DNA from: a virus
Taxonomy: Duplodnaviria > Caudoviricetes
Virus record (IMG/VR): IMGVR_UViG_3300033004_000003
Location: 1-53,646 of that record
DNA length: 53,646 bases
Strand: one strand, 5' to 3'
Part shown: piece by piece, positions 18,459-48,965 of the stretch
Layout of the letters: the number at the start of each line of letters is the position of its first letter
Position numbering within the stretch: position 1 is the first letter of the stretch
The notes under the pieces: model-generated
Databases searched by the model: none
Told to the model about the DNA's origin: nothing
What the model saw: only the letters and a program-made list of their open reading frames with translations
Position numbers and translations under genes: made by a program

Positions 18459-21400
18459 TGAAGAGATTTATCGCCGTGACTGCCGTTCTTGTAGGCGGCG
18501 TTGCCTACGCGCAGCCTATTCAGGGGCCATTAGAGGCGCAAAACTCTCTTGCGGAAATCACGGCGAATGGAACTCAAGCGACCGCCAGAAGCAATATTTC
18601 CGCCGCCGCAAGCGGTGCGAACTCCGACATTACGTCACTTACCGGCCTGACTACTCCGCTTGGCGGTGCTTACGGAGGGACTGGCATTAATAACGGATCG
18701 AAGACGATTACTCTGGGCGGATCACTAGCAACGTCTGGTGCCAATCCGCTGACGTTTACGACGACCGGCACGACTTCGGTAACTCTGCCGACCAGCGGAA
18801 CGCTGTTTTCCAGCGCATCAAGCATTCCGTATACAAATCTGCCGGCATTGTCAGCTAATCAGGTGCTCGGTTCTCTCACGGCAACCACACCTAGTGGCTT
18901 GTCGGTTCCTGCCTGTACGGGCGCTAATGCTGCGCTACAATGGGGCGCGGGCGCCGGATTTGGGTGTGTGACGATCAGCTCGGGGACAAATGCGCCAGGT
19001 GGGGCAAATACGAATGTCCAATATAACAACTCAACTGCATTCGGCGGCAATTCCAGCTTCACTTATAATGGCTCCGGCAGCATCGGGCTGGGAACCAGCG
19101 GTTCGACCACCGGCAATATCGCCTTCGCCAACGGCACAAGCGGCGTAGTCAATCTGACCGTCCCGACTGGCGCGCTTGGCACGGTGACAGATTATCTGCC
19201 GCTTGGCGGTACGCTGCTTACGCTCGGCACAGCGAACAATACCTATGCAACGCTGGGAGCGAACTCCAATATTACCAGCTTAACCGGGCTGACAACGCCT
19301 CTTTCCTCGTCTCAGGGCGGCAGCGGTGTGAATAATGGCTCTACCACGGAGACGCGCGCCGGCAATGTGACGTTTAGCGGTGCATATCCGGTTACACTTA
19401 CGGCGACGGGATCGACTGGCGTTACTCTGCCAACGACCGGCACTCTGCTGAATAACGTGGCGTCCAGCGTTAATACTGTAGTTGGTGCAGCATCCTCGAC
19501 GACGCGGACCGATCTGTCCGTGCCGTCCTGTTCCGGCTCGTCTAACGCGCTCCAATGGACTTCCGGTACCGGCTTCGGGTGCGGCTCCATTACCGGAACA
19601 GCGGCAACGCCTGGCGGCTCTACGGGACAGGTGCAGTACAACAACGCAGGTGCATTTGCGGCAGCGCCAGGCTTCACGTTCGACGGGTCTAGCGCCATCG
19701 GCCTCGGTGTCGCCGGTTCGACCGTCGGTAAAGCCGTGTTCAGCAACGCCACAAGCGGCTCGATCACGCTTCAAGCGCCTACGGGCGCGTTGGGGAGTGT
19801 AACGGATACGCTCCCGGATGGGGGTACGCTTCTCACCACGACTGGTAGCGGCGCGAGCCTGACGGGCGTGGCGTTCAGTGGTGCCAATAGCAATATCACG
19901 TCTTTGTCTGGATTGACCACCGCACTGTCTCCTTCCCAAGGCGGCACCGGCATAAACAACGGTTCAAAAACGGTTACGCTTGCAGGGAATTTAGCAACGT
20001 CCGGCGCGAATTCTCTGACGCTTACGACGACCGGCACAACTAATGTGACTATGCCGACCAGCGGAACTCTACTGAACACGGTAGGAAATTCAAGTTCTAC
20101 CACCGTGGAGCCATCCGACGCGACAACCGCCGTGTCTTTAGCAAACTTCTTTGATGAGACCAAAAATGTCTATTCTTATGGCGCAACTGGAAACGGTGTT
20201 TCCAATGACCTTGCGGCGGGGAATGCGGCTGCTGCTGCCGCTTCGTCAAGTGGTCAGGTTGTTTACTATCCGCCAGGGTCTTATAATTTTGGGGGAAGCA
20301 CTGGAAATACCGAAACAAACGATCCTCTAAACCTGCTCATCGGAGCAAGCTTCCCGAACGGCGCGCCTTTCGGATGCACCACGCAATTGTTCAATAATCC
20401 ATCGTTTGATCTGTGCCAGGCAATGAACGTCCAGACAGGAAATCAGTTCATGCAGGATGATACTGGCATCCTACAGCCGACCGCCGCGACAAATCCGGCA
20501 TATGAGAAAAACGTATTCAGCGCTTTTATGCAGCAAAACGATAGCAGCCCTGACTGGGCTTCCGGTGATACCCATGATGGCGTTGCCGTATTTGGTGACG
20601 CGACCATGGGGGCAAGCGTTGCTCTTGGCCGCGAATGGGGCGCAAATTTCGTAGCTAATAGCACTATGTCTGGCGCTGATGGGCTTCTGACTGGTATTGA
20701 GGTCGATATCGAGCCCGGTATAGCGCAGACGGCTCTTAATTCCCCCACATCTAAAGTAGGGTATACGGTTTTCAATCTCGGATCAGCCGAAGCGACAGCA
20801 GGCATGATCATTGGTGCGAACACATCTGGCGGCCCGACAAATGGCTTTTACAATGGCCTCGTATTCCAGTCATCCAATGATTTTGGAGGGGATGCTTGGG
20901 GGTTGTATAATACAGGCGGTAACTGGCCCGCTTGGGTAGATAATGCAGGGAGCGAAGGCGTAAACGCGCTGATTATTGGAGGCACCCCGCCATCTGGAGC
21001 TACGCCATCATTCCCGAGCCAGACGAATGGCACACTATCTGTCACATCGAGCACCACGGGCGCTATAGCTACGTTCACTGATACCGCCGCAAATGGTGCG
21101 ACCATTGCCATTACTGGGAATGGAGGAACAACTCCACATAAATTTTTGGCAGTCGGTAGCGGAAATCTATATATCAACAATAGTGCGGATTCTGGTCATA
21201 TTCTAACCCTGACTGATGCCGGAACATTAACCGTCCCTGCCGATATGCAATCGGCAGGGTTTGCGTTAACCAACCTCATGAATTATACAACAATTCCGAC
21301 GATCGCTTCCGGTTTTGGTACATCTCCATCAATTTCAAATGCAAATGGTACTGCTGCGTTTGTGTTGACGGTCGGTTCCAGCCCAAACGATACCGGCACC

Positions 21401-21595
21401 ATTACGATGCCTGCCGCCGCTCATGGGTGGGCTTGTGATGCGCAGGATGAATCCACAGTAAACTCCACGGTCTTCATGACTAGAGAGGTTGGGAATAGCA
21501 CGACATCCGTCACATTCGATCAGTTCAACAGTTCCGGTGTTGTGCAAAATTGGGCGGCGGGCGATTTATTGGTGATAAAATGCACGGCATTCTAA
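18458..21595 (+). CDS. Long fibre/spike protein with N-terminal signal peptide and internal repeats
   Basis: TAATG-coupled start MKRFIAVTAVLVGGVAYA|Q; GANS.ITSL.GLTT repeats; NVYSYGATGNGVSND...YYPPGSY tailspike entry motif. Confidence 0.85.
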   Translation: MKRFIAVTAVLVGGVAYAQPIQGPLEAQNSLAEITANGTQATARSNISAAASGANSDITSLTGLTTPLGGAYGGTGINNGSKTITLGGSLATSGANPLTFTTTGTTSVTLPTSGTLFSSASSIPYTNLPALSANQVLGSLTATTPSGLSVPACTGANAALQWGAGAGFGCVTISSGTNAPGGANTNVQYNNSTAFGGNSSFTYNGSGSIGLGTSGSTTGNIAFANGTSGVVNLTVPTGALGTVTDYLPLGGTLLTLGTANNTYATLGANSNITSLTGLTTPLSSSQGGSGVNNGSTTETRAGNVTFSGAYPVTLTATGSTGVTLPTTGTLLNNVASSVNTVVGAASSTTRTDLSVPSCSGSSNALQWTSGTGFGCGSITGTAATPGGSTGQVQYNNAGAFAAAPGFTFDGSSAIGLGVAGSTVGKAVFSNATSGSITLQAPTGALGSVTDTLPDGGTLLTTTGSGASLTGVAFSGANSNITSLSGLTTALSPSQGGTGINNGSKTVTLAGNLATSGANSLTLTTTGTTNVTMPTSGTLLNTVGNSSSTTVEPSDATTAVSLANFFDETKNVYSYGATGNGVSNDLAAGNAAAAAASSSGQVVYYPPGSYNFGGSTGNTETNDPLNLLIGASFPNGAPFGCTTQLFNNPSFDLCQAMNVQTGNQFMQDDTGILQPTAATNPAYEKNVFSAFMQQNDSSPDWASGDTHDGVAVFGDATMGASVALGREWGANFVANSTMSGADGLLTGIEVDIEPGIAQTALNSPTSKVGYTVFNLGSAEATAGMIIGANTSGGPTNGFYNGLVFQSSNDFGGDAWGLYNTGGNWPAWVDNAGSEGVNALIIGGTPPSGATPSFPSQTNGTLSVTSSTTGAIATFTDTAANGATIAITGNGGTTPHKFLAVGSGNLYINNSADSGHILTLTDAGTLTVPADMQSAGFALTNLMNYTTIPTIASGFGTSPSISNANGTAAFVLTVGSSPNDTGTITMPAAAHGWACDAQDESTVNSTVFMTREVGNSTTSVTFDQFNSSGVVQNWAAGDLLVIKCTAF

Positions 21596-21609
21596 TTCCG
21601 GGGTTCTAA

Positions 21610-22353
21610 ATGGCCTATAACTACACCCAATACCAGGTCAAACTTGGAACCCTAATGGCGCTTACGAGCGCCAATCCGGCATCGCCGCCGACTGATCCGT
21701 ATTTCGCGCAGATTTTGCCGGCGTGTATAGATTACGCTGAGCAGAGGATTTACCGCGATCTCGATATCCAGAGCACGACCACAGATGCGACAATTTATAC
21801 GACTGCCGGAACGCCGCTTGTAAGTCTGCCGTCTAATCCTCTAGTTTATGTTGTGGAGAGCATGAGTGTGGTGACGGTTGGTGGCAACGCGCCTTCAATC
21901 ACCGCGCAAACCAACATGAGCCCGGTTGATAAGAACTTCCTGACTGCCACATTCCCGCCTGCGTTCTGGTCTACGGCGCAGGGGATGCCGCAATACTACT
22001 ATATACAAGATCAGAACATCGCCTATATAGGGCCGACGCCTGATCAGGTCTACGGGCTGTACATCGTTTACACGTATCGTCCGACGACGCTTAGCGCGAC
22101 AAACACGACGACGCCGCTTACGCAGATATGGCCAGATTTGTTCTTGGCGTGCAGCATGGTATTCATGAGCGGATACATGAAGAATTTCGGTGCGCAATCC
22201 GACGATCCGCGCATGGCAGGCTCGTGGGAAGCGCAATATCAAGCGTTGCTCAAAGGCGCACTTGAGGAAGAGAGCCGCAAGAAATCGCTCGGAATTGTAT
22301 ACACGCCTCTGCGTGCTGCTGCGTTCAGCGGCAAGCCTACTCAGGCGCAGTAA
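21610..22353 (+). CDS. Tail adaptor/tubular protein (putative)
   Basis: IDYAEQRIYRDL...GMPQYYY...IGPTPDQVY...Y.YRP.TLS...WPDLFLAC. Confidence 0.75.
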   Translation: MAYNYTQYQVKLGTLMALTSANPASPPTDPYFAQILPACIDYAEQRIYRDLDIQSTTTDATIYTTAGTPLVSLPSNPLVYVVESMSVVTVGGNAPSITAQTNMSPVDKNFLTATFPPAFWSTAQGMPQYYYIQDQNIAYIGPTPDQVYGLYIVYTYRPTTLSATNTTTPLTQIWPDLFLACSMVFMSGYMKNFGAQSDDPRMAGSWEAQYQALLKGALEEESRKKSLGIVYTPLRAAAFSGKPTQAQ

Positions 22354-24377
22354 TGCCCATAGCCTCCGTTAAACTCCGCCCCGGCGTTGACGTAGAGCGG
22401 ACCTTCACGCTGAATGAGGCGGGGATTAGCCAGACGCAACTCGTGCGGTTTAAAGATTCACTAATTCAATCAATCGGCGGATGGGTCCAGTGGTATTCCC
22501 AAACTCTGCCATACGCGCCGCGCGTTATCCTTAGCTGGACAGACCTTAACGGCACCGTTTACACGGCAGTAGGGACGTCAAGCGATATTTACGTTATTAG
22601 CGGAAACACGGCGACTGACTTAACGCCAACCAACATTATCGAGAATGTCGCGCCCGAGTTCTCGACGGTTGCAGGGTCTAACGTTGTTACCGTGGACGCA
22701 TCTGGCACAACTCCGATTGTCGGCCTTGGTATATTCATCAACACCCCCGTTTCTGTTGGCGGCATCATCCTGATGGGTGGCTATACAATCGAAGCGCCGG
22801 TTTCCGGTGGTAATTACACGATCACGGTAGCGAACAACGCCACATCGACCGTGAATAATGGCGGCTCTGTGGCGCAATACACGACGACGATGGGCAGCAC
22901 GGCCATCAATGTCATGCTGAATAACCACACTGAAACTTTAGGCTCGCAGTGGACCGAGAAAGTATCTACTTCCGTTGGCGGAATCACGGTTTCGGGCAAT
23001 TACATCGTCTCAGCGATTGTTGACGCAAATAACTTCACGATCAATTCCACGTCTCCCGCCACATCTAGCGCGTCGGCTTATGAAAACGGTGGATTAGTCC
23101 AGACAGTCTATTACCAGAATGCCGTACCACCCACGCTACCAAACTACGGTTATGGCGTTGGCGGATATGGCCTCGGTGGCTACGGCCAGGGCAGCGTTTA
23201 CGTGCCGACTTCGCCTATCTCCGCACCGCTGTGGACGCTGGATCATTGGGGCGAGACGCTGTTGGCTTGTCCTGGGAGCGGCCCTATCTACTCATGGACG
23301 CCGGGGTTAGGAGAAACGACGCTCCAGATAATAGCCAATGCGCCTGCGGTCAACGGCGGCATCTTCGTGGCCATGCCGGCGCAAATCCTTGTGGCATGGG
23401 GCAGCAGCATAAATGGCGTGCAGCAGCCTAACCTTGTGCAGTGGAGCAATCAGCTCGATTACACAGACTGGACGCCTACAGTGACTAATCAGGCCGGAAA
23501 CGCGACGATCCCAACGGGAAGCCGGATCGTCGGGGCCATACAGGCTCCAAACCAAGCGCTGATATTCACGGATATTGACGTTTACGCCATGAACTATCTC
23601 GGCGCATCTGGCAATATCCAGCTTGTGTTCGGGTTCAACCAGATCGCCAAGGGCTGCGGACTTATCGCGCCTCGCGCCGTGGGTGTGCTGAATGGCTCTG
23701 TATTCTGGCTGTCTCCTGGGCAGTTCATGACGCTGGGACAGAGCGGCGTTGTTCCTATGCCATGTCCGGTATGGGATGAAATTTGGCAGGACTTGGACAC
23801 AAACAACCTGAATAAGATCATCGTCGCGCCGAATAGCGTGTTTAACGAAATCGCGTGGTATTACCCTTCGATTTCTGGCGGCACAGGTGAGAATGATAGC
23901 TACGTTAAGTTTAACATGCTGGAAAACGCATGGGACTACGGAAAACTTGTCCGCACGGCCTGGCAGGACTATTCGGCGGCTGGCAATCCATTGGGCGGCG
24001 ATGCTTCTGGCTATCTGTGGCAGCATGAGGTTGGGCAAACCGCAGGCGGCCAGCCCATGAATTGGAGCTTCAGCACTGGCGCGTTCATGATTGCGGAAGG
24101 TGACCAGATGGCTTTTGCCGACTGGATTTTGCCGGACATGCGATATGGGTTCATAAACAACTCGTCCACAAATCAGAATGTGTCTCTAGTTGTGTCGTCT
24201 TACCGATACGCGAATGACGCCCCCGTCACGTCTCCAACGCTGACAATGACGCCACAAGGAAACGGAGAGTTGTCTCTACGCATCCGAGGGCGTGCGATGC
24301 AGCTTACATTCAGTGGGAATGGTTTTGCCCGCATCGGCAATGTGCGCTATCGCTGGGCACCTGATGGGAAATACTGA
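22353..24377 (+). CDS. Tail nozzle/stabilization protein (P22 gp10/T7 gp12-like, putative)
   Basis: VKLRPGV...VRFK...IGGW; WTLDHWGETL; VQWSNQ.DY.DW; RIRGRAMQL. Confidence 0.75.
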   Translation: MPIASVKLRPGVDVERTFTLNEAGISQTQLVRFKDSLIQSIGGWVQWYSQTLPYAPRVILSWTDLNGTVYTAVGTSSDIYVISGNTATDLTPTNIIENVAPEFSTVAGSNVVTVDASGTTPIVGLGIFINTPVSVGGIILMGGYTIEAPVSGGNYTITVANNATSTVNNGGSVAQYTTTMGSTAINVMLNNHTETLGSQWTEKVSTSVGGITVSGNYIVSAIVDANNFTINSTSPATSSASAYENGGLVQTVYYQNAVPPTLPNYGYGVGGYGLGGYGQGSVYVPTSPISAPLWTLDHWGETLLACPGSGPIYSWTPGLGETTLQIIANAPAVNGGIFVAMPAQILVAWGSSINGVQQPNLVQWSNQLDYTDWTPTVTNQAGNATIPTGSRIVGAIQAPNQALIFTDIDVYAMNYLGASGNIQLVFGFNQIAKGCGLIAPRAVGVLNGSVFWLSPGQFMTLGQSGVVPMPCPVWDEIWQDLDTNNLNKIIVAPNSVFNEIAWYYPSISGGTGENDSYVKFNMLENAWDYGKLVRTAWQDYSAAGNPLGGDASGYLWQHEVGQTAGGQPMNWSFSTGAFMIAEGDQMAFADWILPDMRYGFINNSSTNQNVSLVVSSYRYANDAPVTSPTLTMTPQGNGELSLRIRGRAMQLTFSGNGFARIGNVRYRWAPDGKY

Positions 24378-24676
24378 TGACTTCTGACAACACCTTCCAA
24401 AACCAGACTAACACTACCAACAAGATACTGGCGCAGATGCTTACTACGCTGCAAAGCGTGGCGGTTGTTCCCGCCTCAACTGCTGGCGCCGTTGGGAGCT
24501 ATGCTATGGCCAAATCTACCGCAACCGTGGCGTTCGGTTCTACCGTGTCTGGATCATCGCTAACGCCGTCCAATGCTGCCGGATCATCCGTTGGATCGGC
24601 GCTTACCGGAACGTGGCGTTGCATGGGGACAATCGGAAGCTCTGGCGATGTCTCTTTGTTTGTCAGAACGGCGTAA
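24377..24676 (+). CDS. Small tail protein
   Basis: AVGSYAM...GSSL...GTWRCMG...LFVRTA fibre-tip-like motif. Confidence 0.65.
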   Translation: MTSDNTFQNQTNTTNKILAQMLTTLQSVAVVPASTAGAVGSYAMAKSTATVAFGSTVSGSSLTPSNAAGSSVGSALTGTWRCMGTIGSSGDVSLFVRTA

Positions 24677-24719
24677 AAGATATGGCTAGACGCTCCCCTA
24701 ACATGCTAGAAAGATTACA

Positions 24720-25250
24720 ATGTCTGACGCTATAGCCAAGGCGCTGCGGATAGCGCAAAAGCCGATTTGTCGCGCTGATGGCGGGGCTGCCAGCGCTGCG
24801 GATACCCGCGTTTCAGATGGCGTCTATTTTGGACACGGTTTGCTTAAATCATCCGGTTCTGGCCGCACGGATACGCTGCCCATTAACGTGCCGTCCGGCG
24901 CGTATGTCTTGCCCGCTGATATCGTGTCAGGTCTTGGGCAGGGCAACACCTTTGCAGGCGGTAAAATCCTGGATCGCATTTTTGCGGATATGCACCACGA
25001 GGCGCAGGCGCAAGGTGCAGCAGGGCAGCAAATGGGCGAACACAAAGGCGGACGTGCGCAAAGCAAAACCGGCGCGAATGTCCCTATCATCGCAGCGGGG
25101 GGCGAGTATATCATACATCCAGATGTCGTGCGGCATATTGGTGGAGGGGATATGAAGGCTGGGCATGAGTGGCTTGATGGGTTTGTAAAGGACGTCAGGA
25201 CTAGAACCCACAAGACGCTGGCGAAACTCCCTGGACCGGCAAAGGATTGA
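24720..25250 (+). CDS. Protein with duplicated D.lP...GeYvl.adiV..lG.G domain
   Basis: GRTDTLPINVPSGAYVLPADIVSGLGQG and NVPIIAAGGEYIIHPDVVRHIGGG. Confidence 0.8.
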   Translation: MSDAIAKALRIAQKPICRADGGAASAADTRVSDGVYFGHGLLKSSGSGRTDTLPINVPSGAYVLPADIVSGLGQGNTFAGGKILDRIFADMHHEAQAQGAAGQQMGEHKGGRAQSKTGANVPIIAAGGEYIIHPDVVRHIGGGDMKAGHEWLDGFVKDVRTRTHKTLAKLPGPAKD

Positions 25251-25252
25251 GC

Positions 25253-25723
25253 ATGAGCGAAGTCCGCATAGCAACGCCAGCCGACCGTGACGGGATGATT
25301 GATCTGCTGCACATGATGTACGCCGAAAATGGCGTTGCGTCATTGAGCGTGCAAAAGATGTTGGCGTTTCTTGATCGAGGGTTAGCGCGCGATTACTCGA
25401 TCATCGGCATTGTCGAAGATGAAGGTGTGATAAAGGCGAGCATTGGGCTTTTCCTGCACCAATGGTGGTACAGTGAAGATTATCACGTTGAAGATACGTG
25501 GTGTTTTGTGCATCCAGATTACCGGAAGTCAACTTATGCCAAGGACTTGCTGAAGTTCGCCAAGAAATGCGCGGATGATCTTGATATGCAACTGCTGATT
25601 GGCATCCTGTCTAGCGAGAGAACTGCGGCCAAGGTTCGGCTTTACGAGAAAGAATTTGGTCCTTCAATGGGATGTGGATTTGTTTACCCGCATCCTCGGG
25701 CAACTGATAAGGAAGTCGCGTAG
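25253..25723 (+). CDS. GNAT-family acetyltransferase
   Basis: VRIATPAD...FVHPDYRKSTYAKDLLKFA...RLYEK. Confidence 0.8.
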   Translation: MSEVRIATPADRDGMIDLLHMMYAENGVASLSVQKMLAFLDRGLARDYSIIGIVEDEGVIKASIGLFLHQWWYSEDYHVEDTWCFVHPDYRKSTYAKDLLKFAKKCADDLDMQLLIGILSSERTAAKVRLYEKEFGPSMGCGFVYPHPRATDKEVA

Positions 25724-28700
25724 TGGGCAAAGGTTCAAGCACGACTACCAGCAAGACGACGCCAGCCCCGCAAGCAGAAGCGATGGGCAACCAGGCATGG
25801 AGCGCGGCGCAGTCTGCGGCGTCTAATCCATACCAATATTACCCAGGCCAGCTTGTCGCCAATCTCAACCCCGACCAGATGCAGGCGTTTAATACCGTCG
25901 CGCAGTCTCAGGGTATTGCAAATCCGTATATCAATGCAGCGTCTCAGCTAACCAGCTCCGCTTCCCAACCAATTGGCGCGTCTCAGATCAATCAGTACAT
26001 GAACCCGTATATCGGGGATGTCGTTGGTACAACCGCCGCCGAGATTAACCAAAACAACGCCATTCAACAGAACCAGCTACAAGGCAACGCAGCGGCACTT
26101 GGCGCCCTCGGCGGCAACCGCGTGGGCATCGCACAGGCGGCGCTCGCCAACCAGCAGGCAATGGCGGAAAATCAGACTTTATCAGGACTGTATCAGGGCG
26201 GATACAATACCGCGTTGCAGGCCGCGCAGACACAGAACGCGCAGCAGCTACAGGGCGCTTACGAATACGCCAACCTTGGTACTGAGGCGCAGACAGCGGC
26301 GCTTACCGGCGCGAACGCTCAAATCCAGACGGGCGGCATCGAGCAGCAACAGCAACAGAACATCCTGAACCAAGCCTATTCGCAGTGGCTTGGAGCGCAG
26401 CAATACCCGTTTCAGACTGGCCAGTATCTCACGAATACGGCGGGTACACTGGCGGGGCTGTACGGTGGGACATCGTCCACGACAATTCCGGCGCCGTCTA
26501 CGTTCTCGCAGATTGTGGGTGGTTTGACTGGCGTTGCTGGTATCGTCGGCGCTGCGCGCGGCTCCAAAGTCGGTGGACGGATTAATAATGATCTCGGCGG
26601 CTTGGATGGATATGACAGCGGCGGGTTTGTCGGGCCTACTCAATTCGCAGGGCCAGAAGCGCCTCCGCCCTATGATCCAAATAAAAACGTTGAGGCTAAA
26701 GCGTTTGGCGGACGTATTGGCTATGACGATGGTGGATTTGTTGGCCCTACGCATTTCTCTGGTCCGCAAGCTCCACCGCCGTATAACCCCAATAAAAATG
26801 TTGAGATGAAAGCCGATGGCGGACGCATTGGCTACGATGGCGGCGGCGGTATCCCGTACCAAATTGGCGGCATACAGGCTCAAGACCTAACTGGGATGTC
26901 CCATCCTGTTGGATATGTATCAAGCGCTGGCACGGCTGGCGCTACACACTTTGCTGGTCCGCAGGCTCCGCAAGGGTACGATCCGAACAAAAATGTAGAT
27001 CAATCTTCCGGTTTGTCGAAGCAACAAGTGACAGATTTGGGAAGCCTATATGAAGGCGCAAAAAATTACATCAATGGAGCATACGGCCCGACGATGGGGG
27101 GAGGCATAGGAGGCGGGACCAGCGATGCAGCCATGGTTGCTCATCAAGGAGGCCAAAAATCAGGAGGTCGTGTAGGTCGCGCATCTGGCGGTCAATCGGG
27201 CAATACGCCTTCCACGGGCGGCTTGTCTGGCCTTACCGCGTCTCTGTCTAACCCGACCATGACAGAGGGGCAGCAGATTGAGAACTACCAATTCCTGTCG
27301 CCAATGATATCAACAGGCCGCGCGCCGGAAGTAGGGCAGCAGCAGCAACAGCAGCAAGAAAGCCCGCTGCAAGAGGAACAAGCCGAGGAACAAACGCTCG
27401 CCTCTATGGCTGGCCATGCTCATGGCGGACGTGCTGCAAAGGCTGGCGGTGGAAGTCTAGGCGCGCTGCCTACGCCGCAATATGTAGGCACTGGCCCCGC
27501 ACAAACGGCCCCGCAGCCGACAAGCACGGCGGGAACGCAACCCACGTCTTGGGGCAATGTGCAGATGCCATCTGCGCCGATGCTGGCGGCTCCTCAAGGC
27601 GCTGCGCCGGGCACGGGACAACTGCCAGCACTCGGCGGACAAGCTGCGCAGAATTTTGCGGCCAGTTACACCGGCTCGCAAGACCCATACGCGGCATACA
27701 TACAGAGCCTTACCGGCGCCAATCCGTCCGCTGGCAACCGTGCGCCGGGAGTGAACGCGACGACTGCATCAGCAACACCCGCAACCACGGTATCTCCCGG
27801 TTTGGCGGCGCTACTCAAGTCTTGGGGGGTTAATGCATCGGGCATGAAGTCTGGCGGTCGCGCTGGCTATGACGTGGGTGGCGATGTAGCGAATACGCCG
27901 CAAGATTTGGGCAGCACTGCCACGCCAGCCCCAGTTACTGCAACGCCAATTCCGGGCGTGTCGCCAGACTACGTTGCCCGCGTAAACCACATCGAGAGCG
28001 GCGGAAATCCTGCCGCGACTAGCTCGACCTCTACAGCTTCCGGCTTGGGGCAGATTACCGTCCCGACTGCTAAAGCGCTCGCCCCCAGTTTGGCTGGACT
28101 AAGTGACCAGCAGGTGCAGAAGATGGTCCAGCAGCCCGCTGTATCCAACGATCTAACTGCGGAGCTTGCCAAGAAAAACGCCGCATATCTCACGGCAAAT
28201 AATCTGCCTGCCAATGACGGAACTGTTTACCTCGCCCACAATTTCGGTGCAGGCGGGGCCAAGGCATTGCTGACTGCTGATCCGAATACACCAGTTGAAA
28301 ACGTGCTGCCGAAAGAGGACATTACGGCAAATCCCGATCTGGAAGGCAAGACAGTCGGACAAGTCATTGCCAGCCGTTATGCCGAAGTTGGCGCGAAAGT
28401 TGCTCAAAACACCGCCCAGCAGCCGAACTACGGTGGGAACCAGACCGCGACGGACACAAGTCCACTGCCTCCCATCGGTGGAGATCAGGGGCTTGCCACA
28501 TATCAGCAACAGGCTGGAAACGCTCAATACAACTTGACGCAGCCGCAACAGACTGAGGTTGACAAGTTTGCTAATTCGCCGTGGATGGCGCTGGCACAGG
28601 CTGGGCTTGCCACTATGGCCGGAACATCGCCGTTTGCGGGGGTGAACATCGGTGCTGGTGGTCTGGCGGGGCTGCAATATCTGCAAAGCACGCAGGGCCA

Positions 28701-29931
28701 AGAGCGCGCCAATGCTGGGTTGCTTGCGAATATCCAGCAGAACCAAGCAGAATTGCAGCAGCGTGGCCTTGGGCAAGTTTTGCAGGGCGTGCAGGCTGGA
28801 CAGAATGAGCAGCAAATCCGCGCCAATCTCGAGCAAACGATTATCAACGCAAATCCTAATTACACTCAGGCTCAGGTTGCAGCGGAAGCACAGAACCTTA
28901 TCAACGCCGTCACAAATCAGAGCGGCTCTCTTGGCTACAATCCGCCTGTCCAGGGACCGCAGATGCCTCCTGGCATTGTTCAGGGCGGCAATGTCACGCC
29001 GGCCACTCCTGCACCGGTTGTTACGCCACAGCCTGCCGCGCCTGCTCCTGCGCCGCAAACGACAACGGGCGCGGTAGGGCCTGCCCCGCAAGCTCCGCAA
29101 CAGCCATATGTTGCCGCTACGCCGCAATTCGCGCAATCCGCAACGGGCATGCCTCCGGTTGGCGCGGCGACGATCGACACGTCTGCGCCGTCTCCGATCG
29201 GCAACGGGACGCTGCCGCTTGCACAGGCGTACCAGAAGGCTCAACAGATGAGCATTGTCCCGCAGCTAAACACTGCGGCACAGTCTTTTTATTCTCGCAT
29301 GGAACCTCTGATGAACCGTCAGGGCGCCGTCGAGTTGCAGAAACAGGGCAACGCAGCCGCGCAGCAGATGCAGAACATGGATGAACTGGCGGCAGAGGCG
29401 GCTCAAATTCATACCGGACCGGTGACGGGGCAGTTCGTCGCTCATGCGGTTCAGGCTTATGAGGATATTTCTAGCGCTTTTGGATTGCCGATTGACCAGT
29501 CAATCACCGCAAGCTCTGACGCAAGCCAAGTTCTGCCGAAGCTCTCCGCAAACCTGTTGGCCACTATCGGGCGCATGGGGTCTGACGTAGGTGGCGCTGA
29601 AACGCTACGTATGATGGGGCCGGCTGTTCCGACGTCCGCAAACACCGTGTCAGGCATCCCGAAACTAGTGCAAGTTTACAATACCATGAGCCAGCGAACC
29701 ATGGCGCTCGGCAACTATGTTAATGCTGCAGTGTCTCAAAATACGATGACTTACGCGCAGGCTATCGGCGCCTTCAACCAGCAATATCCGCCCGCAATGT
29801 GGGCATCGCACGTTACGCCATTGGCGTTACCTGACAATGTTGCCGCGTTGAAGCCTGGTTTCGCTTACCAAGCGAACGGCAATTATGCTATATGGAATGG
29901 GCAGAGCTTCCAACCCATGAGCGGACAATAA
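25723..29931 (+). CDS. Internal virion/DNA-ejection protein with lysozyme-like (SLT) domain
   Basis: MGKGSSTTTS start; YMNPY...ALGGNR; HIESGGNP...ASGLGQIT...YLAHNFGAGGA muramidase motifs; about 12 GG motifs. Confidence 0.8.
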   Translation: MGKGSSTTTSKTTPAPQAEAMGNQAWSAAQSAASNPYQYYPGQLVANLNPDQMQAFNTVAQSQGIANPYINAASQLTSSASQPIGASQINQYMNPYIGDVVGTTAAEINQNNAIQQNQLQGNAAALGALGGNRVGIAQAALANQQAMAENQTLSGLYQGGYNTALQAAQTQNAQQLQGAYEYANLGTEAQTAALTGANAQIQTGGIEQQQQQNILNQAYSQWLGAQQYPFQTGQYLTNTAGTLAGLYGGTSSTTIPAPSTFSQIVGGLTGVAGIVGAARGSKVGGRINNDLGGLDGYDSGGFVGPTQFAGPEAPPPYDPNKNVEAKAFGGRIGYDDGGFVGPTHFSGPQAPPPYNPNKNVEMKADGGRIGYDGGGGIPYQIGGIQAQDLTGMSHPVGYVSSAGTAGATHFAGPQAPQGYDPNKNVDQSSGLSKQQVTDLGSLYEGAKNYINGAYGPTMGGGIGGGTSDAAMVAHQGGQKSGGRVGRASGGQSGNTPSTGGLSGLTASLSNPTMTEGQQIENYQFLSPMISTGRAPEVGQQQQQQQESPLQEEQAEEQTLASMAGHAHGGRAAKAGGGSLGALPTPQYVGTGPAQTAPQPTSTAGTQPTSWGNVQMPSAPMLAAPQGAAPGTGQLPALGGQAAQNFAASYTGSQDPYAAYIQSLTGANPSAGNRAPGVNATTASATPATTVSPGLAALLKSWGVNASGMKSGGRAGYDVGGDVANTPQDLGSTATPAPVTATPIPGVSPDYVARVNHIESGGNPAATSSTSTASGLGQITVPTAKALAPSLAGLSDQQVQKMVQQPAVSNDLTAELAKKNAAYLTANNLPANDGTVYLAHNFGAGGAKALLTADPNTPVENVLPKEDITANPDLEGKTVGQVIASRYAEVGAKVAQNTAQQPNYGGNQTATDTSPLPPIGGDQGLATYQQQAGNAQYNLTQPQQTEVDKFANSPWMALAQAGLATMAGTSPFAGVNIGAGGLAGLQYLQSTQGQERANAGLLANIQQNQAELQQRGLGQVLQGVQAGQNEQQIRANLEQTIINANPNYTQAQVAAEAQNLINAVTNQSGSLGYNPPVQGPQMPPGIVQGGNVTPATPAPVVTPQPAAPAPAPQTTTGAVGPAPQAPQQPYVAATPQFAQSATGMPPVGAATIDTSAPSPIGNGTLPLAQAYQKAQQMSIVPQLNTAAQSFYSRMEPLMNRQGAVELQKQGNAAAQQMQNMDELAAEAAQIHTGPVTGQFVAHAVQAYEDISSAFGLPIDQSITASSDASQVLPKLSANLLATIGRMGSDVGGAETLRMMGPAVPTSANTVSGIPKLVQVYNTMSQRTMALGNYVNAAVSQNTMTYAQAIGAFNQQYPPAMWASHVTPLALPDNVAALKPGFAYQANGNYAIWNGQSFQPMSGQ

Positions 29932-32900: not shown

Positions 32901-33021
32901 AGCAACTGCCGCCGTGTTGCGGAAGTATTCGGATAAGCCCAGCGCCATTAAGCAGTTTACGCGCTCAATGGCTAAGATTATTCTCGCCCACCAAGCTCAA
33001 CCGCAAGGCCAGAACCAATGA
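29932..33021 (+). CDS. Large internal virion/ejection protein
   Basis: 1029 aa, Ala/Gln/Gly-rich helical, follows ejection protein. Confidence 0.7.
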   Translation: MPLDQSVLSQFSQVATPLPGGNTPAQTPQQLFNAPQPQQQGAPISSVMGQFQKAAQPLPGTSAPDDQQPTGPPQRGGFFRNVAAGVLGVPQEIADVGKTFYERTFNPEYQPTLPTSAGQKEYASRGANVRYGFTPNSTPLTPVPEANIPGVTPFIQGTTQKGPMDYVGQGIGQMLPMALAPEAEAGLLVRGAKAAATGAASGLGSIAGGALASAVGAPRQAGEFWGSLVGGFGAAGAGALASKAGLGAQGLSEIAPVTQGMQERYAASKIRQFGGENIGQQVEAARGTQPIVPGSMPTAAQAARSPELARLETALTESGQGVYLQEAQAAQGAARSAHIQGAQFTPEQAEAARISGVAPTPGTPSNLSEYLTQARATDEQNLASPIAVAEQSRAAGINEPLMATPGAKQPALASVANAPEAYQAGAALRAPISAGDQTRQIATSRLYKALDERNPVLNMAPMADATGAIQKNIEEAGLQNVSGDEKNIYQRAQEMGQSDGVTWKKVNGFRAELNDAVTSSIDPKTGRSTASTARLQGLKRATDDAINTAIDRHVEQNPDVYQAPLAEQARLWKQAKTQDERQAAISGQGSTGTPQGNLATYGQPSGAGRVGAAPGTMGAQPTGLPNAPGAGGMAQRGAEGSINPEWSQEDVDNYREALKSHAQRMGLYWNKYISPILATDPGGDFRMPDEAVIKAALPGGDKSRQAAKLIKSIAADKPSVLDAYGQAMALSLRNAAVKDGVNVDQNALNRWMENHSGMLSVFPEVAQKVRNIKGAQDMVEKATAAREAGLEQYNHRAIQGILNGDDPEVAMKTVMGGSPSDARKFMATIQKNPAAIAGARAAAANNLVDRLVKSGDKPDARIASLEAILRDPKQRQNMGIVLGPQAEIALRRVLEDERATNSYALARAAKAGSPTAFYGAAKEELQRPTTWLGSILHSINPLEAMVGVGEAAPFPVRAAVGVFDSILRNFSTNRVQAAQRFLAKTLTSPEATAAVLRKYSDKPSAIKQFTRSMAKIILAHQAQPQGQNQ

Positions 33022-33803
33022 CCACCACATTCACCCCAAACCGAAACTACTCCCTTCCCGGAACCGGCGATGACGTAAACTCATGGGGGCCGGTTATCAA
33101 CGCGAATTTTAGCGCGATTGATAGCAATATCTCTGCCCAGAATATTATAACCACGACTGGCGGAACTACGACGCTCACGACGGCACAGGGCGCTAATTTA
33201 TATTTCCCAATTACCGGCGCCCTCACGTCGAACGCAACAATCATATTCCCTGGCACTGCCACATTTTTCTTCGCGTCCAACCAAACCACAGGGACATATA
33301 CGACAACTTTGTCTGCCGCTGGCGGCGGGGCTAGTGTTGTTCTGCTCCAAGGAACTGCTGGCGTTTTCTGGACCGACGGCACGAATATATACCAAGTTGG
33401 CGGCGCTCCCGTAAATTCTATCCCATCTGGCACCATCATGGGTTCGTTCTTGCAGGCTAGCGCCCCTACGGGATGGGTTCAGATCAATACGTTCAACGAC
33501 CAGGTTATCCGTGTGGTTAATAACACTGGGACAGGTGGCGCGACGGGCGGCTCTTGGACCGTGAGCGGGTTTAACGACAATCCAATCGCGCTGACGATCG
33601 CGCAAATTCCATCGCATAATCATACGATTGAACTTAATATCAATGGGCATGTAGCGGCTGGCGGAAGCCTTGCTCCAGGTGAAAACACAGGGACATTTAC
33701 GACAGATAATACTGGCGGCGGCGGAACTCACAATCACGGCGTTTATAATGACGGCACTTGGAGGCCAAGTTTCGTGAACGCCATCGTTTGCCAGAAAAGC
33801 TAG
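33018..33803 (+). CDS. Tail fibre/collar-like protein (no signal peptide)
   Basis: SWGPVINANF..ID; IPSGTIM..F.QASAPTGW; LTIAQIPSHNH; GGGGTHNH. Confidence 0.8.
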   Translation: MTTTFTPNRNYSLPGTGDDVNSWGPVINANFSAIDSNISAQNIITTTGGTTTLTTAQGANLYFPITGALTSNATIIFPGTATFFFASNQTTGTYTTTLSAAGGGASVVLLQGTAGVFWTDGTNIYQVGGAPVNSIPSGTIMGSFLQASAPTGWVQINTFNDQVIRVVNNTGTGGATGGSWTVSGFNDNPIALTIAQIPSHNHTIELNINGHVAAGGSLAPGENTGTFTTDNTGGGGTHNHGVYNDGTWRPSFVNAIVCQKS

Positions 33804-33811
33804 GAGAAATC

Positions 33812-34135
33812 ATGGCATATCGAAACGCAAATAACTGCAAGAAATGCCCCAAAAATAACGGGCCTGATGGATGCCCTTGGTGGTGGGAATACACAGAAAC
33901 CAATGCAAGCGGCGAAACTCGTATCACGAAGGAATGCGGCATCGCGGCGCTGCCTAAATTTCTCGGTCACGTGCTGGCCGCGAGCAATCGCCCTGCTGCG
34001 GCCATAGAAAGCACACGAAACGCTTTAGTCGAAGCGCTAAACGGTGTAGGGCAGGTACTGGATAAGCGCATAGATCAATCGGTCGCAAAGCTGGCGCAAG
34101 ATAGCGTGGCGCTGATAGGAAAAGACAATGCGTAG
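33812..34135 (+). CDS. Cys-rich small protein, possible fibre assembly factor
   Basis: AGGAG RBS; CKKC...CPWW...ECGIAALP. Confidence 0.7.
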   Translation: MAYRNANNCKKCPKNNGPDGCPWWWEYTETNASGETRITKECGIAALPKFLGHVLAASNRPAAAIESTRNALVEALNGVGQVLDKRIDQSVAKLAQDSVALIGKDNA

Positions 34136-34595
34136 TTTATGGATCGCTGTATTTCTTCTGTTTGCGCCTATTGTCGCACATGCGCAATCCACGCCTAATC
34201 CCGTATCAACGTGGTGCGCGTCATCCGCCGCAGGTCCGTGGACGCCTTGCGTTGGTAGTGGAGGCGGCTCCCCGTCATCGCCATCTTACATCAAGCCCGG
34301 CACATATACTGAAGTACCTCTCGATATTGCTACAACCACATCAGCAAATGTTGCTGTTGCGGCTTTAAGTGCCGGGCATCGATCTGCCGGCGGGTGGATA
34401 CAAAATCCGCCAACGGCGACAACCGTCATCTGTGTGAATACGATCACCACAGCGGCTTTCTCCAGCGGTGCATGCATCGGCAGCAACAATGCGATTTCTC
34501 CGGGGCAGGTATTTAATATCCCGGCCAATGCAAATGCGGTCTCGGTTGTATCGTCTGATGCAACGCATCCGTTTAGCGGGGAAGGGTTGCAGTAA
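34128..34595 (+). CDS. Secreted-type small beta protein (signal peptide, 2 Cys pairs)
   Basis: MRSLWIAVFLLFAPIVAHA|Q. Confidence 0.8.
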   Translation: MRSLWIAVFLLFAPIVAHAQSTPNPVSTWCASSAAGPWTPCVGSGGGSPSSPSYIKPGTYTEVPLDIATTTSANVAVAALSAGHRSAGGWIQNPPTATTVICVNTITTAAFSSGACIGSNNAISPGQVFNIPANANAVSVVSSDATHPFSGEGLQ

Positions 34596-36172
34596 TGAAA
34601 AAGCTATTCACCACATTATTTCTGCTGTTGTGCGCCCCTACCTTCGCGCAAGTTCAGAACGCTGGCGGCTTCGGCCCTGGTCCAACTCCCGGCATCGCAG
34701 CCAATGGCGGCACCGGCAACAACATCACTCTGAACGGCACCACGAACATCACGGGCAGTGCCAGCAACGCCGTGACGCAGCCGCCTGTGGATAATACCGT
34801 CCGCATTGCCACCGATCAGTTTGTGCAGTCCCTATTCGCCGTCACGCGCTCTACCGTGTACCTCTCCGGCGTGACAGGCGGGACGCTGAGCTTTGCCTCC
34901 GTCGGCACCGGGGCGGCGTTCAGCTTCACCGCGACAGGCGGCGTTATTACGTCCATCGATTCCGTATACGCGGGCGGCTCCGGCTACAAAGTCGGCGACG
35001 TGCTGTATATACCGCGAGGCAACTATGACAACTATATCATGGTCACGGGGGTTTCCGGGACCGCGATCACGTCGGTCAAAATCCTCAATGGCGGCACCGG
35101 CAATACGAGCGGCCTCGACATTACCGCAATGGCGGCTATCGAAGCGCCGATTATCTACAATATATCCGGCACGCTTACTTCCAACCTCCAGGTCATCGCC
35201 TCTAACGGTGCGGTGCTTGGCTATTCCGGCATCTTCCTGCTCATCAACAATACCACGGGCAACTATACCGAGAGCGTTTGCATCAGCAACGGCTCTGACG
35301 CCTGCAACGGCAACGGCAGCGTGGTTATCCCCCAGGGCAGCGGGAATAGCTGCGCCACTCTGACATATACGGATGGCTCTACGCCCTGGCTGGTGTCTCC
35401 TACGGAGTGTGGCGCGGCGCAGTTTGCCTCGGTCAATCTTGGCTCCAACGTCTCCGCCGCTAACTGGTCCACCACAAGCCCGATGTTCAATGTCCCGGCC
35501 ACCACGCTCACGGATACCACGGGCAGCGGAACGATTGCACTGCGCGCGGCGGAGACGATTAATAACTGCACGTTTGCGGCGTCGAGCAGCGAGACGATCA
35601 CGAATGCGGCGTGTTTGTATGTAGGAAGTCCTGCCAACGGAACGAATGTAACGGAAACAAGCAGCTATTCCATTTATGCAACTGGAGCCATTGATACTAC
35701 AAGCAATTTGGTTGCTTCAGGTAACATACTCGGAAATAGCGTACAGGCTACCGGAAATAATTCCGTTGATGCTGGTATTAACAGGCCATCAAGTCACACA
35801 TTAGGATTTCAAACTAGCGCAACCTCAGCTGGTGTGATTGACGCAAACCAAAACTGGCGCATCGGCGGCGCCGGTACGCCTACCATATCCAGCGGCGCAT
35901 GCGGCACAGGCACCAATGGCAGTATCGCAGCAAATGGTAACAATCAGGGCTTTGAAGTTGATATCGGCTCTGCCGCCACAACTACCTGCACGATTACTTT
36001 TGCCAATTCTGGCTTTGTGACAGCGCCGCGAGAGGCACAACTTACCGCGCACAACGCCGCCGCCGCAGCGCAGGGCACAACGCTCGCCTATGTAAGCAGC
36101 CTCGGAACCACAACGATGGTGATTACCGGGAGCGCCCTAGCTAATGCCAATTATTATGTGCAGGTTCAATAA
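34595..36172 (+). CDS. Fibre-like protein with signal peptide
   Basis: MKKLFTTLFLLLCAPTFA|Q; DNTVRIATDQFVQ fibre motif; GGSGYKVGD. Confidence 0.8.
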   Translation: MKKLFTTLFLLLCAPTFAQVQNAGGFGPGPTPGIAANGGTGNNITLNGTTNITGSASNAVTQPPVDNTVRIATDQFVQSLFAVTRSTVYLSGVTGGTLSFASVGTGAAFSFTATGGVITSIDSVYAGGSGYKVGDVLYIPRGNYDNYIMVTGVSGTAITSVKILNGGTGNTSGLDITAMAAIEAPIIYNISGTLTSNLQVIASNGAVLGYSGIFLLINNTTGNYTESVCISNGSDACNGNGSVVIPQGSGNSCATLTYTDGSTPWLVSPTECGAAQFASVNLGSNVSAANWSTTSPMFNVPATTLTDTTGSGTIALRAAETINNCTFAASSSETITNAACLYVGSPANGTNVTETSSYSIYATGAIDTTSNLVASGNILGNSVQATGNNSVDAGINRPSSHTLGFQTSATSAGVIDANQNWRIGGAGTPTISSGACGTGTNGSIAANGNNQGFEVDIGSAATTTCTITFANSGFVTAPREAQLTAHNAAAAAQGTTLAYVSSLGTTTMVITGSALANANYYVQVQ

Positions 36173-38571
36173 TGAAAAAACTCATCGCAGCTATTTGGCT
36201 TCTTGCAACTCCGGCGCTCGCCGCCAATTATGCCAGCCCGACATATAACAACATCACGACCACCGGAAATATCACATCAAACAGCGGAAAAATCATCGCT
36301 GTTGTCCCTACCGACGCGGCGCTAAAGGCTCTCCCACTGACGGGATTTAGCGCCGGAACCATTGTGCAGGATACTGGATATTATGCTGATGGAGATATGC
36401 CGCCTGTCGAGTATTCGCTGCAAAACTCGGCATGCTCGCTGAATGCTGGCGCGGGTGATGGCGGATCGCAAATCCCCTCCAATACCTCTGGACACTGCTG
36501 GGTTTTGACGCCGCAGAATAGCTACGACGCGCGCATTTGGGGTGTGGTAGCGGATTATAATGGGACGACCGGGACCGAAAACACGACGGCGCTGGCGAAT
36601 GCTATCTCGTTCGCGGAAGGAAGCGCCGTCCAGGGTGCCGCACGACACCTGACACTGCCTGCTGGTGAAATCCTCACTGGGGCGCAAACGGTAAATGGTA
36701 GTATCAGGATAACCGGCGCTTCTGCGATTGCAACCACGCTTGTTCTGAAAAGCGGCGTCAATGCTCCGATCCTCACGACACTGATCACTAGCACAACGGG
36801 GCCATACGCGACAGCGCCCGAGGTGTATTATTCTGATCTATATCTCACCAGCGTTGATGGTCAGTCGGCAGTTAGTGAGACGGGTGCTTACGGCCTATCC
36901 TTCCCAAGCGGCGGCACGAACACTTTTGTATATCTCGACCGCATCAGCGTGGACAATATGCCGGCCGACGGTATAAACGGACATGGGTTCGTCGGATTTG
37001 TGCGCGCGAGTGTCGTGTACCTGCGCGCAAACGGAGGCAACGGCCTTTCCAGTAATTCCGACGAGGATTGGATACTCATAGGGGCCAATATTGACGGCAA
37101 TACCAGCAACGGCATCTTAAGCTCCGGTGACGGTCAATTTTATCTGAATAACATAAACTCGTTTGACAATCACGCAAATGGCGTTGAATTGTACGGGCAT
37201 GAAGCGGTAACTTTCGACGGCCACAACGAGTTCAACCTGAACGATCAAGATGGACTGCTCGTCGCCAACCAATCAAGCGGCAGCAATCTTTCCGTGATCT
37301 CTTTTAATGGGAATGTTGTGTTTGGGAATAACTCGTACACCGCTCCTAATACCTATTCAGCTATCGAGGTAAAGGGTGGCAGCGGAGCAGTCATAAACCT
37401 GCTTGGTGCATCGTTCATTGCTCCTTACGGGCAAAATTCCAGCAACCAAGAGAAATATAACGTCAATTTCACGAACTCCACGACAAATAATGTTTTTTGC
37501 GTCTCGTGTAATTTCTCTGGAGGATCTGGCGGGGCTTATGTCACCAACAACTTATCGCTACTAAATACGCTAGAATTTCCGTCTTCCGGCTCAGGCTGGA
37601 CGGTTAATGGTGCGCTGGCCGTTGCAAATGGAGCGACGTTTAACGGCACAACGAGTTTCGTTGGTGATTCTACGTTTGGAAGCACAGCCAGCTTCGCAGG
37701 GGCGGTTCAGCTGGGCGGCGGAATTAATGCCGGCAGCAACAATGTCCAAGTCACAGCCTCGACTCAATATCGAGGAATTACCGTAAGCAACGGGACGAAC
37801 ACGATTGCAGCAATCCAGGGCCATTCGTCCACAAACGATAATGGCGTTTTAACGCTGTATAACTCTGGCGTTCAGTCCGTTTCTATCGGCGGAACTGGCA
37901 GTAATTCGTTGTCAAATACGCTTTTATTAGGATCACCCGCTTCTGGATCAACGCCGGGAAATGGGCAGGTGCAGGCGCAGGCTGCGTCTGGTACAAATAT
38001 CAACGGCGGATCATTATATCTAATCGGATCGCTCGCTACAGGCACCGGCATTGACGGTGACATTGTGATAAAAACCGGCACCAACCCGGGATCGTCCGGT
38101 ACGACGCAGGCTACCGCAAACACTGCCGTGACGATTAAAGGAGAGACGCAAGCCCTAATCGCCAATGCGGGCTTGGAGGTTGGCTCCCCATCCGGCACTT
38201 TTGAAGGCACCGGCACAACCAATCAAGCTTCCGATTTCTACCTCAACGGCAAGAAAACCATGAGCGAAACGGCGTCTACGATCTCGTCCGGCTTCGGAAC
38301 TGGCGATGCGATCTCCCAGGCTAACGGTGATGTGGCGTTTGTCGATACCGTTGGATCAAGTTCCGGCTCTACGGCAACCTTCACAATGCCAGCCGCGACT
38401 AACGGATGGGATTGTTCGGCCTACGATCAGACAACCAATACGATTGATATTGTCCAAAGTGGTCAAACATCAACTAGCATCACCTTTAAAAGCTACCTCC
38501 GTACCACTGGGGCACTGACCGCCCCTACGGTAGGTGATGCTATCCAGATCGGTCCGTGTGTGGGGCATTGA
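36172..38571 (+). CDS. Tailspike-like parallel beta-helix protein with signal peptide
   Basis: MKKLIAAIWLLATPALA|A; TGYYADGD, DARIWGVVAD...ALANAI, N..NG repeats. Confidence 0.8.
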   Translation: MKKLIAAIWLLATPALAANYASPTYNNITTTGNITSNSGKIIAVVPTDAALKALPLTGFSAGTIVQDTGYYADGDMPPVEYSLQNSACSLNAGAGDGGSQIPSNTSGHCWVLTPQNSYDARIWGVVADYNGTTGTENTTALANAISFAEGSAVQGAARHLTLPAGEILTGAQTVNGSIRITGASAIATTLVLKSGVNAPILTTLITSTTGPYATAPEVYYSDLYLTSVDGQSAVSETGAYGLSFPSGGTNTFVYLDRISVDNMPADGINGHGFVGFVRASVVYLRANGGNGLSSNSDEDWILIGANIDGNTSNGILSSGDGQFYLNNINSFDNHANGVELYGHEAVTFDGHNEFNLNDQDGLLVANQSSGSNLSVISFNGNVVFGNNSYTAPNTYSAIEVKGGSGAVINLLGASFIAPYGQNSSNQEKYNVNFTNSTTNNVFCVSCNFSGGSGGAYVTNNLSLLNTLEFPSSGSGWTVNGALAVANGATFNGTTSFVGDSTFGSTASFAGAVQLGGGINAGSNNVQVTASTQYRGITVSNGTNTIAAIQGHSSTNDNGVLTLYNSGVQSVSIGGTGSNSLSNTLLLGSPASGSTPGNGQVQAQAASGTNINGGSLYLIGSLATGTGIDGDIVIKTGTNPGSSGTTQATANTAVTIKGETQALIANAGLEVGSPSGTFEGTGTTNQASDFYLNGKKTMSETASTISSGFGTGDAISQANGDVAFVDTVGSSSGSTATFTMPAATNGWDCSAYDQTTNTIDIVQSGQTSTSITFKSYLRTTGALTAPTVGDAIQIGPCVGH

Positions 38572-48779: not shown

Positions 48780-48965
48780 ATGTTTTGGACGAAAACCAAG
48801 GTTTGTGTGTACGCAGCGTCTGTACTCTTCAATATACTTACGTATCTAAAGGACAGAAATGAGATCAAAGTTTTCATTGCTAGCATAGCTCTGGGGCTTT
48901 TCCTGCTGAGCTACATGGAATGGGCCGAAGCGCCCACGCCCAGCGACGAATCTGCCAACAAATAA
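48780..48965 (+). CDS. Small two-TM protein
   Basis: AGGAG RBS; two hydrophobic segments. Confidence 0.55.
   Translation: MFWTKTKVCVYAASVLFNILTYLKDRNEIKVFIASIALGLFLLSYMEWAEAPTPSDESANK

Follow-up and report, generated by a model that had tools for sequence, protein, structure and literature searches.

The complete 53,646-bp virus record IMGVR_UViG_3300033004_000003, which has direct terminal repeats at its ends and is called the window throughout, encodes two large fibre-like proteins, P0001 and P0003, that begin with a predicted Sec signal peptide and end in a homologous C-terminal module of ~105 aa, designated CTD1 here. The end of a third signal-peptide protein, P0002, is a separate module, CTD2, and the two modules are probably distant relatives. 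On sequence grounds, CTD1 is a very large unnamed family made up of the C-terminal domains of phage fibre- and tailspike-like proteins. The reading that we favour, at what we judge to be an even chance, is that the module is a mobile, trimerising, disulfide-locked knob at the distal end of fibre-like proteins, most of them exported. All window genes and features described below lie on the + strand, and their coordinates are those of the window.

The C-terminal modules of the window proteins

P0001 (1045 aa; 18458-21595) consists of a signal peptide, a repeat-rich fibre region, a probable beta-helix region and CTD1, which occupies 21278-21592; P0003 (799 aa; 36172-38571) consists of a signal peptide, a body and CTD1 at 38251-38568 (residues 694-799). 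Comparing the two proteins by BLASTP, a single significant segment was found, between residues 957-1035 of P0001 and 700-775 of P0003 (51% identity over 79 aa, E = 6e-16). Since all the remaining segments had E values of 22 or above, the bodies are unrelated at the BLASTP level, just as a preliminary description of this DNA had held. A tblastn search of the window genome with the P0003 module gave exactly two places, 38239-38568 and 21290-21577 (E = 1.5e-19), and the family profile, a hidden Markov model (HMM) built from 152 sequences, matched both proteins across the ~105-aa domain (E = 2.3e-38 for P0001 and 3.2e-35 for P0003). The identity between the two copies carried by this phage is 45-51%.

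The preliminary description had placed one and the same module on three fibres, and the C-terminal sequences that it quoted are present as written in all three translations. The claim stands for P0001 and P0003, with the boundaries of the modules slightly refined; P0002 (525 aa; 34595-36172) ends instead in the marginally related sister module CTD2 (about 35873-36169). The P0002 end had no significant pairwise BLASTP match (E = 0.8 and 7.8), and an HMM of six CTD1 sequences missed it at E <= 10. The 152-sequence HMM found it with E = 0.0014 among 1435 ORF segments, at 15.1 bits with a bias of 13.7, i.e. with high compositional bias; by hhalign, the E value was 0.005 with a probability of 6.9%. 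When the two families were compared profile to profile, hhalign gave E = 2.6e-4 and a probability of 42% over 47 columns, which cover the N-terminal half only. CTD2 has a family of its own with 36 proteins of 297-895 aa, 30 of which have a signal-peptide-like start.

The bodies in front of CTD1 bear marks of fibres and of beta-helix proteins. A weak rhamnogalacturonidase-like stretch (E = 0.029) lies within P0001, and P0005 and P0006, which are close relatives of P0003, contain the Beta_helix domain PF13229. P0001 has long fibre-type repeats and, right after its signal peptide, motifs that we take to be those of fibre N-termini. Long internal repeats, apparently two to three in number and with a cysteine pair in each (153/170 and 358/375), lie within residues ~60-560 of P0001 (18458-20100), and the N-terminus of one relative aligns to two places in P0001.

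Size, position and carriers of the family

Searching 1.84 billion representatives with a profile built from six CTD1 sequences gave matches to 2970 cluster representatives at E <= 1e-3, 2343 of them at E <= 1e-10. The 150 matches listed of these 2970, together with those of the window, make up the 152 members examined here. In every one of the 152, with protein lengths from 116 to 1536 aa, the module match ends 0-5 residues from the C-terminus. The same position was found in IMG/VR, where 193 stretches encode the module: in the 80 loci analysed, all 82 module ORFs end 0-2 residues after it, and 78 loci have a single copy.

Known families did not account for the module. Pfam had no match anywhere in the three window proteins, and none at E <= 0.01 in the module of any of 35 members scanned; PHROGs gave no match to the module in the three window proteins, and for NCBIfam the modules of 8 proteins had none at E <= 0.1. 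At tblastn sensitivity, with three family members as queries, the module was absent from 50,697 deposited phage genomes, the sole match covering only the linker motif of P0154. The only Pfam domains on 9 large members were Collar and Beta_helix, in one protein each, and nine of 10 members without a signal peptide had no PHROG family, the one match of the tenth lying in its body.

The module is carried by viruses and prophages. In the nearest Atlas clusters, viral members make up 84-100%, and those genome matches that could be judged were prophages. In the Undibacterium locus L004, the gene order is that of a lambda-like prophage tail module, with J, a 257-aa fibre stub, a signal-peptide beta-helix protein ending in the module, and an endolysin. 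In a Caballeronia calidae locus, a 158-aa protein consisting of signal peptide, linker and module follows the capsid genes, and in a further genome locus, L010, Pfam had no match in the 10 ORFs around the module gene. The named carriers among the 9 genome loci are Terriglobia or Acidobacteriota, Undibacterium, Caballeronia and Gallionella, and the virion types that carry the module include podovirus-like, lambda-like and others. Some members are little more than the module itself, such as P0022 (116 aa), the 119-aa proteins of L049, L052 and L075, and P0154 (158 aa).

Signal peptides and cysteines

Signal peptides were called by a heuristic based on hydrophobicity and charge. Four window proteins have the positive start, hydrophobic core and small residues at -3 and -1 of a Sec-type signal: P0001 (18458-18511; MKRF...AYA, presumably cleaved before QP), P0003 (36172-36222; MKKL...ALA, presumably cleaved before AN), P0002 (TFA, then Q) and P0159 (AHA, then Q). 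The last (155 aa; 34128-34595) lies directly upstream of P0002, has two local cysteine pairs and lacks the module, and neither PHROGs nor Pfam matched it. Across the family, a signal-peptide-like start was scored in 105 of the 152 members (~70%) and in 48 of the 82 ORFs in IMG/VR loci, so that the co-occurrence with signal peptides, which the preliminary description had put up for testing, is strong under this heuristic. Of the remaining 47 members, several either visibly have a signal peptide that the rule missed or are truncated genes.

The module has two dominant cysteine columns, occupied in 131 and 129 of the 152 members; in P0003, the pair is Cys748/Cys796. Both cysteines are present in 102 of the 105 signal-peptide members, as compared to 24 of the 47 others (Fisher p = 2e-11, which ignores relatedness). 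Controlling for relatedness on a tree left 6 independent pairs at supported branches, of which ~2.6 changed the same way, 0 the opposite way and 3.3 not at all; the association points the right way and falls short of a demonstration. In the window, the mature parts contain 8 cysteines in P0001 and 8 in P0002 (four local pairs each), 6 in P0003 and 4 in P0159, and all of them are in sequence-local pairs. Cysteine is absent from the capsid protein of the window and from both of its large ejection proteins. Because the AxA-type sites come together with mature cysteines that occur only in sequence-local pairs, export and oxidative folding are probably real.

Three relatives, P0092, P0130 and P0147, have a fibre-type motif, P..GD.S...A.TAFV, right after the signal peptide, bracketed by an extra cysteine pair. 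This suggests that they may be ordinary fibre shafts in which the virion anchor has been replaced by a signal peptide. Runs of signal-peptide genes adjoin the module gene also in L003, L045, L050 and L076.

Predicted fold and self-association

With an alignment of 35 rows, AlphaFold modelled the P0003 module as an eight-strand beta-sandwich (pLDDT 89.3, pTM 0.81); with 6 rows, the pLDDT was 77.6. Searching both models against the PDB with Foldseek gave no match at E <= 0.001, the best having E = 0.078 and a TM of 0.42. The top neighbours, all of them weak, were pyocin fibre feet, a cyanophage tailspike end, a Klebsiella tailspike, CBM29, CBM4 and AP22 gp53, and a search of BFVD returned one true family member along with weak tail-fibre matches.

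A model of three copies scored 0.47 against 0.00 for the best of 3 controls, with scores of 0.44, 0.83 and 0.47 in three runs that share at least 50% of their contacts and in which the partner pLDDT was at least 72. The model thereby passes the mark used for self-association, which is reached by 20 of 30 proteins solved as one-chain pairs and by 1 of 23 solved as single chains. The predicted interface lies in the C-terminal half of the module (residues 55-110 of the 110-aa query). The prediction supports self-association of the module, and of the roles that the preliminary description had offered for it, namely docking, trimerisation or export, it is trimerisation that fits this three-copy model.

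Which end of the protein is exchanged

The arrangement of related genes bears on which end of these proteins faces the virion. In one lineage, with ~26 IMG/VR loci, the module is on a small protein of 119-180 aa without a signal peptide. The 179-180-aa version of this protein begins with ~70 residues that match the start of the following protein, of ~850 aa, at 48% identity (E = 3e-8 and 5e-9). To judge by these alignments, this is the ordinary arrangement of a common N-terminus and differing C-termini, with the module at the other end. Similarly, adjacent signal-peptide proteins share ~190 aa of their N-terminal regions in L082 (6199-10333 of that locus; 46% identity, E = 2e-42) and 48 aa in L041 (7657-10348 of that locus; 69% identity), and the members of each pair differ at the C-terminus, with the module on only one of the two.

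A 396-aa relative, P0008, matches P0002 with 69% identity over residues 13-287 and P0003 with 77% identity over the last 118 residues, and P0167 has the same N-terminal body as P0002 (76%) with a P0002-type end. The P0002-type body thus occurs with either C-terminal end, so that C-terminal cassettes are swapped on a conserved N-terminal body. Alternative C-terminal cassettes are what is usually seen at the variable, distal end of a tail fibre. No neighbour gene family was found to accompany the module across lineages, the recurrent neighbours belonging to single lineages. Taken together, these observations argue against the module as a general docking unit.

Candidate adaptors

A candidate adaptor for P0001 is P0157 (174 aa; 17934-18458), a fibre-like protein without a signal peptide whose stop codon overlaps the P0001 start. 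The C-terminal 101 aa of P0157 (residues 74-174) are 54% identical (E = 4e-36) to P0160, which directly precedes a short P0001-like gene in L003, and the N-termini of P0157 and P0160 differ; 18 homologues of P0157 were found, mostly of 174 aa. Likewise, the 257-aa stub of L004, which has the N-terminus of a side tail fibre, overlaps the signal-peptide protein at its start. Adaptor and exported fibre thus seem to travel together as a cassette, and this suggests that the exported proteins reach the virion.

A proposed pathway and its alternatives

In the pathway that we propose, the module would fold independently as an eight-strand beta-sandwich, close the polypeptide and associate into a trimeric knob, and it would move as a recombination cassette between unrelated bodies. 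The signal-peptide fibre proteins would most likely be exported in the unfolded state, because a Sec signal peptide stands at their start and a cysteine pair is kept in the domain. Folding and trimerisation would then begin in the periplasm from the C-terminal knob and be locked by a disulfide. The knob would most likely be the distal end, a trimer lock that is probably also a glycan or receptor adhesin, and probably neither the virion-docking end nor an export signal. The sister module of P0002 may be used in the same way. Attachment to the virion would be likeliest at or after lysis, via adaptors that are not exported, such as P0157. We put forward more tentatively, as possible but clearly less probable than the distal knob by itself, that these proteins form a widespread two-compartment class, in which tailed-phage fibres and tailspikes are exported by Sec, fold in the periplasm from a disulfide-locked trimeric knob, and join virions made in the cytoplasm at lysis through adaptors resembling P0157 or the L004 stub. 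The CTD1 family and its sister would then be marks of this assembly route.

Several points weigh against the distal knob. The proposed binding of receptors or glycans is drawn from a weak resemblance of the predicted fold to CBM29, CBM4 and fibre tips. The signal-peptide calls come from our own heuristic and not from SignalP. The link between signal peptides and cysteines is not shown once relatedness is controlled (median sign-test p = 0.25), and both cysteines are kept in 24 of the 47 members scored without a signal peptide, several of which are miscalled or truncated. The trimer is a prediction, and its calibration used two copies and the tool's own alignments, whereas the model has three copies and an alignment of ours, so that the counts hold only roughly. 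The predicted trimer interface does not include the best-conserved motif, PTISSGFGT...NGTAAF. Finally, P0001 and P0003 have nothing in common but the signal peptide and the module, which is the picture expected of a shared docking unit.

That was the interpretation of the preliminary description, in which the N-terminus is spent on secretion, so that the polarity of the fibre is inverted and the C-terminal module docks all three fibres to the virion. Besides the sharing just mentioned, one could cite for it that the conserved PTISSGFGT face is free of the predicted self-interface, that in the window (P0157) and in L004 (P0156) the gene immediately upstream encodes a fibre-like protein lacking a signal peptide and its stop overlaps the next start, and that the conserved C-terminal domain of P0157 and P0160 travels with a P0001-like gene between otherwise different phages. 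We nevertheless consider it improbable, although in this particular phage the module may still dock. Relatives without a signal peptide share their N-termini with the neighbouring fibre gene and have the module at the opposite end, the adjacent signal-peptide proteins of L041 and L082 share N-terminal regions with the module on one per pair, and the same N-terminal body occurs with either C-terminal cassette. Moreover, no neighbour family recurs across lineages, the module is found on podovirus-like, lambda-like and other virion types, and the two copies within one phage are only 45-51% identical. An alternative that keeps the self-association seen in the three-copy model is that the module, always C-terminal and on unrelated bodies, only aids folding and trimerisation as an intramolecular chaperone would, possibly being removed later, and binds nothing. 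Its distribution does resemble that of the endosialidase-type C-terminal chaperone domain, but the near-module-only proteins (P0022, P0154 and those of L049, L052 and L075) lack a body that would need such help, the module is predicted to be all-beta, and Pfam matched the module to neither Peptidase_S74 nor any other family; we find this explanation distinctly unlikely.

It is unlikely as well, if less so, that the signal-peptide proteins are no virion parts at all, being instead exported enzymes or adhesins, such as free depolymerases, receptor-destroying factors or exclusion factors, with the module anchoring them to envelope glycan. There is a bacterial precedent in WceF of Pantoea stewartii, outlined in PMC7949094 as an exported tailspike-like trimer with a Tat signal. 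The signal peptides and the cysteine pattern point to export here too, and relatives of P0003 have a Beta_helix domain. However, the genes form part of late structural operons, and their translation is coupled to that of fibre-like genes; an L004 phage without this partner would be left with a 257-aa fibre stub and no distal part. P0001, moreover, has its long fibre-type repeats and, after the signal peptide, what we presume to be fibre N-terminal motifs. Least probable, to the point of being remote, is that the module is a C-terminal signal for passage through or attachment to the outer membrane, resembling that of the type IX secretion system (T9SS). The architecture is indeed that of T9SS cargo, in which a Sec signal at the N-terminus is followed by an unrelated body and, at the C-terminus, by a beta-sandwich of ~100 aa, but neither Pfam nor NCBIfam matched a sorting-domain model, the named carriers (Terriglobia, Undibacterium, Caballeronia and Gallionella) are not Bacteroidota, ~30% of the members lack a signal peptide, and P0001 and P0003 have no C-terminal transmembrane segment. 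The first two of these points also leave the suggestion of the preliminary description that the module serves export unsupported. PEP-CTERM and LPXTG-type anchors were ruled out, there being no C-terminal hydrophobic segment.

Comparison with known systems

The foot of the R1 and R2 pyocin fibres (6cl5, 6cxb, 6ct8) and the AP22 gp53-like domain (4mtm, PF21882) are likewise small beta-sandwiches that end a trimeric fibre, and they are the top but weak structural neighbours of the module. Atlas clusters bearing PF21882 align to it at a TM of 0.57-0.59, below the bar, and the module itself had no Pfam match to Gp53-like_C (PF21882), with E = 0.52 and a TM of 0.36 for 4mtm. Domains of the pyocin foot and gp53 type sit on fibres assembled in the cytoplasm, and we know of no signal peptide on them. 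The endosialidase-type Peptidase_S74 domain is C-terminal, is common to fibres and spikes with unrelated bodies, and is needed for trimer formation. The module is alike in distribution and differs in its all-beta predicted fold, in its occurrence nearly alone and in having no Pfam match to that family. As for the T9SS sorting domain, the likeness lies in the Sec signal, the variable body and the C-terminal beta-sandwich of ~100 aa; the module differs in that many of its members lack a signal peptide, no sorting-domain model matched it, and the carriers at the 9 genome loci are not Bacteroidota.

To our knowledge, tailed phages are considered to build their virions wholly in the cytoplasm, and it is the family-wide link of phage fibre proteins to Sec export that is unusual. 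No description of phage tail fibres with signal peptides was found in the full-text literature covered, which leaves out most subscription journals. The family comprises ~3000 sequence clusters with neither a curated model nor a solved structure, and through it fibre-like proteins of phages are connected with Sec signals and paired cysteines. Should these proteins belong to the virion, the fibres have to be attached across compartments or once lysis has occurred; should they not, exported enzymes or adhesins of a fibre-like kind are commonly encoded by phages within structural operons. In both cases, a profile of the module would annotate thousands of unexplained proteins and would mark fibre genes in the viromes of soil and freshwater, the environments suggested by the named carriers. 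A parallel from outside phages is WceF, which is summarised in PMC7949094 as a tailspike-like trimeric beta-helix whose virion-binding N-terminus has been replaced by an export signal. By that account, WceF is encoded in a chromosomal exopolysaccharide cluster and has a Tat signal, whereas the window proteins are encoded by a phage within structural operons and have Sec-type signals and a C-terminal module; the likeness is one of description and not of sequence comparison.

Other genes of the window

In their order along the window, the genes include the large terminase (5926-7572), the portal (7748-9961) and the major head protein (13854-14768). Following P0001 are an SU10-type adaptor (21610-22353; PF24175, E = 1.2e-22), a nozzle-like virion protein (22353-24377; phrog_3287) and, further on, a 1402-aa ejection protein with a transglycosylase region (25723-29931). 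P0158 (33018-33803), which has no signal peptide, is a conventional short tail fibre matching the tail fiber protein family phrog_12796 (E = 5.6e-10); Pfam gave no match for it at E <= 0.01. On our reading of the sequence, it has an N-terminal INANF motif and HxH motifs, and the HNH-type histidine motifs near its end presumably resemble a phage tail collar domain. By blastn, no close deposited phage was found, the sole match being 390 bp at 67% identity. The closest relatives of the window fibres are on the L003 contig, which is binned with a Terriglobia genome, so that the host may be an acidobacterium.

At 33758-34135, after the short tail fibre and before the genes with signal peptides, lies the gene of a small protein with four cysteines near its start (CKKCPKNNGPDGC...), which might, as a guess, be a zinc-binding assembly factor. 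For a 99-aa ORF (24377-24676), the PHROG matches are confined to the C-terminal ends of families for tail fibres and fibre assembly (E = 2.5e-6 to 8e-5). An acetyltransferase-like gene (25247-25723; phrog_1249, E = 2.3e-13) lies within the tail and ejection module, just before the gene of the 1402-aa ejection protein, and a 61-aa ORF at 48780-48965 has a hydrophobic N-terminal segment and is possibly a lysis membrane protein.

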